Part shown: positions 21,851 to 22,410 of the stretch, one piece after another
Numbering within the stretch: the stretch's first letter is position 1
Layout: every line of letters begins with the position of its first letter
Assembly: GCA_951406725.2 (NCBI GenBank)
Contig: OX597814.1
Span: forward strand, 26,226,001 to 26,290,000
DNA length: 64,000 nucleotides
Source: Octopus vulgaris
Taxonomy: Eukaryota
Direction: 5' to 3'
Notes under the pieces: generated by a model
Databases searched by the model: none
What the model was told of the DNA's origin: nothing
Seen by the model: the letters and a program-made list of their open reading frames with translations, nothing else
Program-made: the position numbers and the translations under genes

Positions 21851-22410
21851 GTAGAAAATACAAGCTGGGACAAGAACGTAAAACATTGATAAGACGATAC
21901 AAAAAACACACGGACGGGACATTCGAAGCCTTCAATCTTCAGTCAAGAACCGGATCATCCTAGCAATTTCGGCTGATCAATCTTGAGATCGCTCCGATCC
22001 GGTCAGCCCCAAGGAAAAACTAAGCTACGAGCATTAGATTTCTTGGAAGAAGGATCAAATGTATACGAAACAGGGACAGAAAAATGGATGATGCCACACG
22101 AATATAAAATACAAAAAACAATAATGGTAAAAACAGGACAAAAACAGCAGGTGTCTTACGACTAATAAACAGTACAATTTAGTTTAGCTGGCGTATTTGG
22201 AAAAAAGGCCTTTATCGGCAGACGAAGACAATGATTTTCTCACGGCAGTGGTCAGAGGCCAAAAGGCTGCTTTGACCAGCAGTCACGTGAGAGAAGAGAG
22301 AGAAAAGAAAGGGCGCAAAGGAAACAAAGAGAGAGAGAAAAAGAGGGACGAAGGCAACAAAGGGGGGAGAAGAGAGAGAAAGAAGGAATTAAAGAGGGGA
22401 GAAGAAAGAA
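21851..22410 (-). mobile_element. Non-coding repeat resembling a Penelope pLTR, containing a structured HHR-like RNA
   Basis: CpG-retaining non-coding island between microsatellites. The minus strand of 21921-22010 has CTGAAGA, GAAA and an AUC site with four complementary helices. Confidence 0.4.

Follow-up and report, generated by a model that had tools for sequence, protein, structure and literature searches.

Known hammerhead forms and the retroelements that carry them

Hammerhead ribozymes of types I-III (CGS, GSC and SCG) share one circular order of core blocks and a pseudoknot-free core. Outside these types, the order site-GAAA-CUGANGA has been described as type SGC, which comprises HRIMA-1 and its variants and is characterised by a linker of about 3 nt between stems I and II, a fourth helix and in vitro cleavage at 0.007-0.19 per min (Eckert et al. 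2023, PMC10085705). Type SGC is reported in that paper from environmental RNA and from no genome of a known organism. The other non-circular form, type CSG, is known from two metagenomic sequences only. Its treatment of permutations assumes that CUGANGA and the neighbouring stem strands cannot be interrupted, and insertions of more than 1-2 nt into the hammerhead core are described there as unknown.

Among retroelements, type I hammerheads occur in Penelope-like elements (PLEs) and in non-LTR retrozymes, the latter being non-autonomous PLEs (bioRxiv 10.64898/2026.07.22.740005), and these tolerate one extra base between positions 9 and 10.1 (PMC4209133; bioRxiv 10.64898/2026.07.22.740005). Short core insertions and pseudoknots are recorded by Perreault 2011 (PMC3088659), whose sections on them contain no junction of helices between A9 and G10.1; in the literature searched there is likewise no precedent for such a junction, the single extra base being all that is described at that place. 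A hammerhead split there is not described in the full texts searched; subscription papers, bioRxiv and Eckert supplements could hold one. Naiads, a group of PLEs, are presented by Craig et al. 2021 (PMC8557442) as being without a canonical hammerhead, and the parts of that paper bearing on the question leave its flags "core" and "half core" unexplained and use the missing Naiad ribozyme as an argument that hammerheads may merely parasitise PLEs.

A probable hammerhead core opened between A9 and G10.1

The window, that is the whole 64-kb stretch of octopus DNA analysed, carries on its minus strand a motif that is probably a hammerhead-type RNA. It would belong to the non-circular SGC/CSG ring, with the opening placed between A9 and G10.1. 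Its likely cut follows C21987, and it likely helps to replicate a non-autonomous repeat that is Penelope-like and probably mobilised by a Naiad. An earlier note, made from the letters alone, had named the core motifs, and all of them are present where it placed them (Table 1). Its claim that their order falls outside types I-III stands, since the order is S-G-C; neither the circular order nor the pseudoknot-free core of those types is found here. The further claim of a new topology fared less well as regards block order, which is the published order of type SGC, and better as regards the break of CUGAAGA from its stem II strand, which is the real novelty.

The core contains CUGANGA, GAAA and UH together with A15.1-U16.1 and G10.1-C11.1, and is flanked by stems I, II and III that covary in the cross-family pairing test. 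Its strands run in the order IVa, hairpin V, IIa, b, IIIb, UH/cut, Ia, IIb, GAAA, IIIa, b', Ib, CUGANGA, IVb, with the CUGANGA-stem II strand broken between A9 and G10.1 and the stem II strand lying at the 5' end. The gap is bridged by a closing stem IV and by hairpin V, two helices that had been missed and that belong to the motif, so that the extent first proposed, 21921-22010, was too small. In the families compared, stem IV begins at A9 or within 2 nt of it, and its partner strand sits just before hairpin V. The four helices originally named are indeed complementary, with the correction that A22003 had been counted in two of them at once. The predicted cut falls at the same place as before, by analogy to the hammerhead core.

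Stem III and helix b are separated in the window copy by linkers, GGA and TAGGAT, that fit a kink-turn pattern (a 3-nt bulge, tandem GA/GA and flanking helices, which we take to be the kink-turn consensus), as do those of 6 of the 19 parsed copies, the window copy included. In F3, F6 and F7 (L069, L211, L239), families introduced below, an AGUA/GAA internal loop, presumably loop E-like, replaces the kink-turn, and in copies belonging to LINEs the junction is a bulge.

Table 1. Features of the window discussed in the text
Feature	Positions	Strand	Remarks
Family F1 copy, 5'-truncated, of a non-coding ~830-nt repeat	21851..22410	minus	3' end at 21851; flanked by (TA/TACA)n microsatellites
Full motif	22062-21919	minus
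Stem IV 5' strand	22062-22049	minus	outer 22062-22055, inner 22053-22049
Hairpin V	22046-22009	minus	last base directly before G10.1
Stem II 5' strand GGCTGA	22008-22003	minus	G10.1 = 22008
Helix b 5' strand and GA of predicted kink-turn	22002-21993	minus
Stem III 5' strand and AUC triplet, GCGAT-C	21992-21987	minus	predicted cut after C21987; basis: hammerhead-core analogy and 5' junction tallies
Stem I 5' strand TCAAGA	21986-21981	minus
4-nt linker and stem II 3' strand TCAGCC	21980-21971	minus	TCAGCC 21976-21971; C11.1 = 21971
GAAA core and stem III 3' strand	21970-21963	minus	GAAA 21970-21967
Predicted kink-turn loop, GA and helix b 3' strand	21962-21950	minus	GATCCGG 21956-21950
Stem I 3' strand TCTTGA and core CTGAAGA	21948-21936	minus	TCTTGA 21948-21943; CTGAAGA 21942-21936; N7 = 21938
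Stem IV 3' strand	21933-21919	minus	includes the downstream GGCT of the earlier note
Second copy of the layout, sequence-unrelated (family F4)	19751..19865	minus	stem II region partly decayed; predicted cut after C19809; in 3' UTR of RLE-type LINE fragment
Broken C-terminal end of RLE-type LINE ORF	19910..20540	minus

The nearest described form is type SGC. The two agree in core order, in their double pseudoknot, in the shortness of the linker between stems I and II (4 nt here and 0-6 nt over the 19 copies, typically 3 nt in type SGC) and in an additional helix that connects the sides of stems I and II left free; here this is helix b, placed after IIa and before Ib. The motif departs from type SGC in that block C, uninterrupted there, is split, strand IIa and the interaction strand lying 5' of the site and being joined to stem III; in the addition of stem IV, hairpin V and the predicted kink-turn; and in being genomic, with thousands of animal retroelement copies. 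The split form is accordingly one of type-SGC-like working that dispenses with the uninterrupted block C of that type. With type CSG it has the same ring of blocks in common, as that type is given in PMC10085705, but in type CSG the ring is opened elsewhere and CUGANGA is still joined to stem II.

Recurrence, covariation and conservation

The flanks of loci found in the search with F1 revealed further families with the same layout and other helix sequences. In the 2.8-Gb genome, first-look candidates number 3186 for F1, 2335 for F2, 3543 for F3, 2310 for F4 (one copy being that at window 19865-19751), 987 for F5 and 1635 for F6, a young family in which 40/40 scored copies stand at 100%; four further families are represented by single copies each. 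At L094 (minus strand, ~160) there is a decayed copy with the same order, probably of another family.

Nineteen copies were parsed. Self-pairing of stems I, II, III and helix b is partly built into the descriptor, which does not require stems IV and V, and the informative part is therefore that the letters differ. The pairing test used 14 representatives; L249, both copies from the window and two others lacking a parse of IV/V were set aside. Pairing over the six helices was 0.95-1.00 within families vs 0.39-0.49 across families, with 2-5 pair types per helix position. In 14 of the 19 parsed copies, no more than 5% of 400 flank shuffles equalled the combined score for IV and V (6/400 for the window copy); in the other 5 the score was not significant. 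The junctions are mostly of zero nt. The descriptor gave two four-helix matches in the real window; 150 dinucleotide shuffles (9.6 Mb) gave three four-helix matches, one strict match and no six-helix match. Rfam yielded no match anywhere in the window at gathering score and, at E <= 5 over 19600-22420, no hammerhead and microsatellite noise only.

The earlier note had expected the core and helices to be better conserved across copies than the flanks. Within F1 this comparison is uninformative, the core being no better kept than the flanks: in 26 copies, counted without 4 loci that belong to a single tandem array, non-majority letters make up 5/312 in the core and 46/2600 and 30/1508 in the flanks, as expected of neutrally decaying copies. 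Between F1 and F2 the expectation is borne out, identity being 83% over the motif vs 50% and 62% in the flanks.

In four public sequencing runs of three coded organisms, available as contigs only, depth over the motif is several times that of the flanks. In one helix b pair both partners vary compatibly, unphased. No circle joint is listed among these contigs, which do not show ends, strand or level.

The host repeat and its 5' ends

Given that its monomer, 830-832 nt by tandem spacing, has a longest sense ATG ORF of 38 aa, F1 is non-coding. Among the 41 near-full-length matches listed, 40 are other copies at 93-95% identity. Copies have one fixed 3' end, in (TA)n, and variable starts, and a partial copy often stands ahead of a full one (9 loci shown). 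The absence of an ORF, the tandem partial and full monomers and the fixed 3' end are those of a non-autonomous PLE or non-LTR retrozyme, and the layout of F1 copies is the layout of non-autonomous PLEs. With type I PLE hammerheads and non-LTR retrozymes it shares the terminal-repeat position, tandem partial and full copies and lack of an ORF, as far as these are described in PMC4209133 and bioRxiv 10.64898/2026.07.22.740005; the type I PLE hammerheads differ in their circularly ordered, mostly dimeric cores without stems IV and V (Cervera and de la Pena 2014, PMC4209133, in the account of their cores). In the downstream flanks of L002 and L005, on the opposite strand, there are look-alikes of minimal PLE-type hammerheads with an extra base after A9, one of them with an odd CUGUAGA core (by eye).

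Between the predicted cut and the 3' end of F1 there are 136 nt, and truncated copies tend to begin close to the cut. In a hand tally of 32 loci whose 5' ends adjoin (AT)n, taken from the first 100 of 1174 matches, 30 start at or just after the cut (9 at the cut and 21 at +4 to +12), one is ambiguous and one lies upstream. On contig C1, a 28-nt interval further upstream holds 4 loci vs 40 in one further downstream, and 24 of these 40 are at +10 to +13. Reverse-strand counts over the whole genome with three anchors were 56, 146 and 321, and are not normalised because the three anchors catch different subfamilies. The junctions favour AT microhomology, a bias that may contribute to the step. This pile-up of 5' junctions gives moderate support to templates that end at the predicted cut. 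The window copy itself runs 424 nt upstream of the cut, and its template was therefore uncut or re-joined.

The window motif likely cuts its own RNA, and its type-SGC relatives cleave in vitro. An alternative reading makes the RNA a hammerhead derivative that is non-cleaving or protein-assisted, gives it the role of a signal at which the element's reverse transcriptase binds or primes, and traces the 5' ends to enzyme stalling; it is improbable, though the best placed of the alternatives. Reverse transcriptase stalling at the structure could mimic the 5'-end step, and a signal of this kind would suit the near-3'-end position in two unrelated retroelement groups, the long copies that run straight through the site, the 5' ends of F6 (0/23 at the cut, 20/23 at +4 to +9 and 3/23 upstream) and the poor in vitro cleavage of minimal PLE hammerheads reported in PMC4209133. 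Against it, the 5'-end step coincides with the predicted cut instead of with the structure's 3' edge, N7 is the sole core position among the variants listed in the four sequencing runs, and both core motifs are intact in 7/10 LINE loci selected by protein (by eye; see below).

Which strand pairs as stem II

An ordinary type-SGC hammerhead would find its stem II in a strand downstream of CUGANGA (in F1, GGCU after a 5-nt insert), the upstream helices being accessory or an off-switch. In its favour are the 16 nt after the core, which are identical in F1 and F2, the 4-5 downstream pairs, wobble-rich, that are possible in 4 of the 19 copies (F3, F3b, F5 and F6), and an alternative upstream partner in F4, which makes switching conceivable. 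The reading is a little less probable still than that of a non-cleaving signal. A directly adjacent downstream partner of at least 4 bp is absent from the window copy and from 15/19 parsed copies, all LINE and Naiad copies included; the downstream strand pairs instead as stem IV, by up to 13 bp; and it is the upstream strand that covaries with IIb. The downstream GGCT, which the earlier note had held open as the partner, overlaps stem IV and was rejected, and its other candidate, the upstream strand, was the right one. The readings that complementarity in the repeat arose by chance, or that the motif is a decayed type I PLE hammerhead of the minimal kind (CUGAAGA ... GAA UGUC downstream), are barely credible, for the resemblance of the downstream letters to a minimal PLE hammerhead and the modest z of only -1.89 of the window copy's nested-only fold, in which pseudoknots are ignored, are set against the shuffle controls, the contradicting cross-family covariation and a downstream GUC that has no stem I partner after it.

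Naiads and the RLE-type LINE group

The (TA)n target is one likeness between F1 and Naiads; another is the published octopus Naiad consensus, whose 3' end has the same six-helix layout and kink-turn (PMC8557442, from the supplement). A 17-nt motif of this consensus occurs 425 times in the genome, with 0 control matches. The window element differs from Naiads in having no ORF: the F1 monomer encodes nothing of their combination of an N-terminal GIY-YIG with RT. In 30 loci no RT/GIY-YIG ORF is joined to F1 and the flanks are without an ORF, and 30 Naiad-pattern loci have no Naiad ORF upstream. As no autonomous partner was found, the link of F1 to Naiads rests on shared layout and target. A Neptune-type GIY-YIG family beside one F1 copy, the one family of that type examined, carries a type I motif of its own instead. 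This young PLE family (L121-L150, ~2430-2560 on the element strand) has many intact 775-aa ORFs, and a type I-ordered hammerhead with the core CCGAAGA (U4C) in 29/30 motifs listed.

Excerpts of the Naiad consensus ends in the supplement of PMC8557442 (55 records) were judged by eye. The split layout fits ten of them, namely Bfor (where stem I is only 2 bp), Chem-3, Amil, Aacu, Anas, Movir-2, Plae, a crustacean record in part 19, Obim and Ovul. Three ends (Nbra-3, Hpol and Smim) are of type CSG, Esco fits partially, and no fit was seen in the excerpts of Skow-2, CGi, Mcor, Tama, Omin, Dst-1 and Dst-2; for Chem-1 and Dst-3 the excerpt was the tail alone.

The same layout occurs in the 3' UTR of an RLE-type LINE, which we take to belong to a HERO-like clade. 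In the window, the F4 motif comes after the stop of the broken LINE ORF, and (TA)n at ~19690 closes the LINE. The RLE-type LINE fragments received no Pfam assignment; a sister copy of the ORF has 47-60% identity to the ends of 32 proteins, of which 14 carry RVT_1. An alignment search with the C-terminus, that is with protein and not with an RNA pattern, gave 13 metagenome loci, two of them weak and one ending early; the remaining 10, six from one assembly, have the motif region in the 3' UTR, and five of these parse fully (with a stem IV of up to 13 bp), one has a short helix b and four are decayed. A scan of viral contigs gave only two weak, irrelevant matches. In the C-terminal read-through tails of P0027, P0030 and P0031, peptides (PET..., LLM/LLK) occur that GAAA and CUGANGA can encode, hinting at a ribozyme behind further LINE relatives. 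At L247:1566-1760 and L248:1195-1322, the stretch that separates the LINE stop codon from the ribozyme region contains segments resembling tRNA (by eye).

A proposed mechanism and its implications

For the split hammerhead, we predict that a three-way junction of IV, V and II substitutes for the covalent link by keeping A9 next to G10.1, and that the kink-turn, AGUA/GAA loop or bulge bends stem III into helix b, which would thereby reach as far as stems I and II at their ends. Cutting of tandem transcripts would release monomers of ~830 nt, whose ends would be held by the pairing of IV, II, b and III (~25 or more base pairs). Since the products would stay paired in this way, they would likely be religated into a circle. 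At the (TA)n target, reverse transcription would begin ~136 nt downstream of the cut. A cut, linear template would let it run off in the neighbourhood of the cut; an uncut or circular one would let it go on and give long and tandem copies such as that in the window. The mobilising enzyme is likely a Naiad.

We incline, with some reserve, to a broader view: that an active hammerhead form, with CUGANGA held to stem II by a three-way junction instead of a covalent bond, is the missing Naiad ribozyme from ctenophores to octopuses, is shared with the unrelated RLE-type LINE group, and cuts and re-closes element RNAs so that they are copied from circles. The split form breaks the stated assumption by which hammerheads are restricted to six permutations, takes non-circular permutations from environmental RNA into animal genomes in thousands of copies, and would explain the "half cores" of Naiads. 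It also places a hammerhead within an RLE-type LINE, in whose 3' UTR cleavage would cost the RNA its tail if no re-closure followed.

Some further features of the window may be recorded. On the plus strand at ~22600-23900 there is a 5'-truncated LINE fragment with RVT_1, presumably of an RTE-like clade, which shares the microsatellite of the F1 copy in opposite orientation. At 2801 (+) there is a CUGAUGA with GAAA no more than 20 nt behind it, which may be the remnant of a minimal PLE hammerhead. Finally, positions 54543-54896 hold a 48-bp tandem repeat of 7.4 copies with 95% matches.
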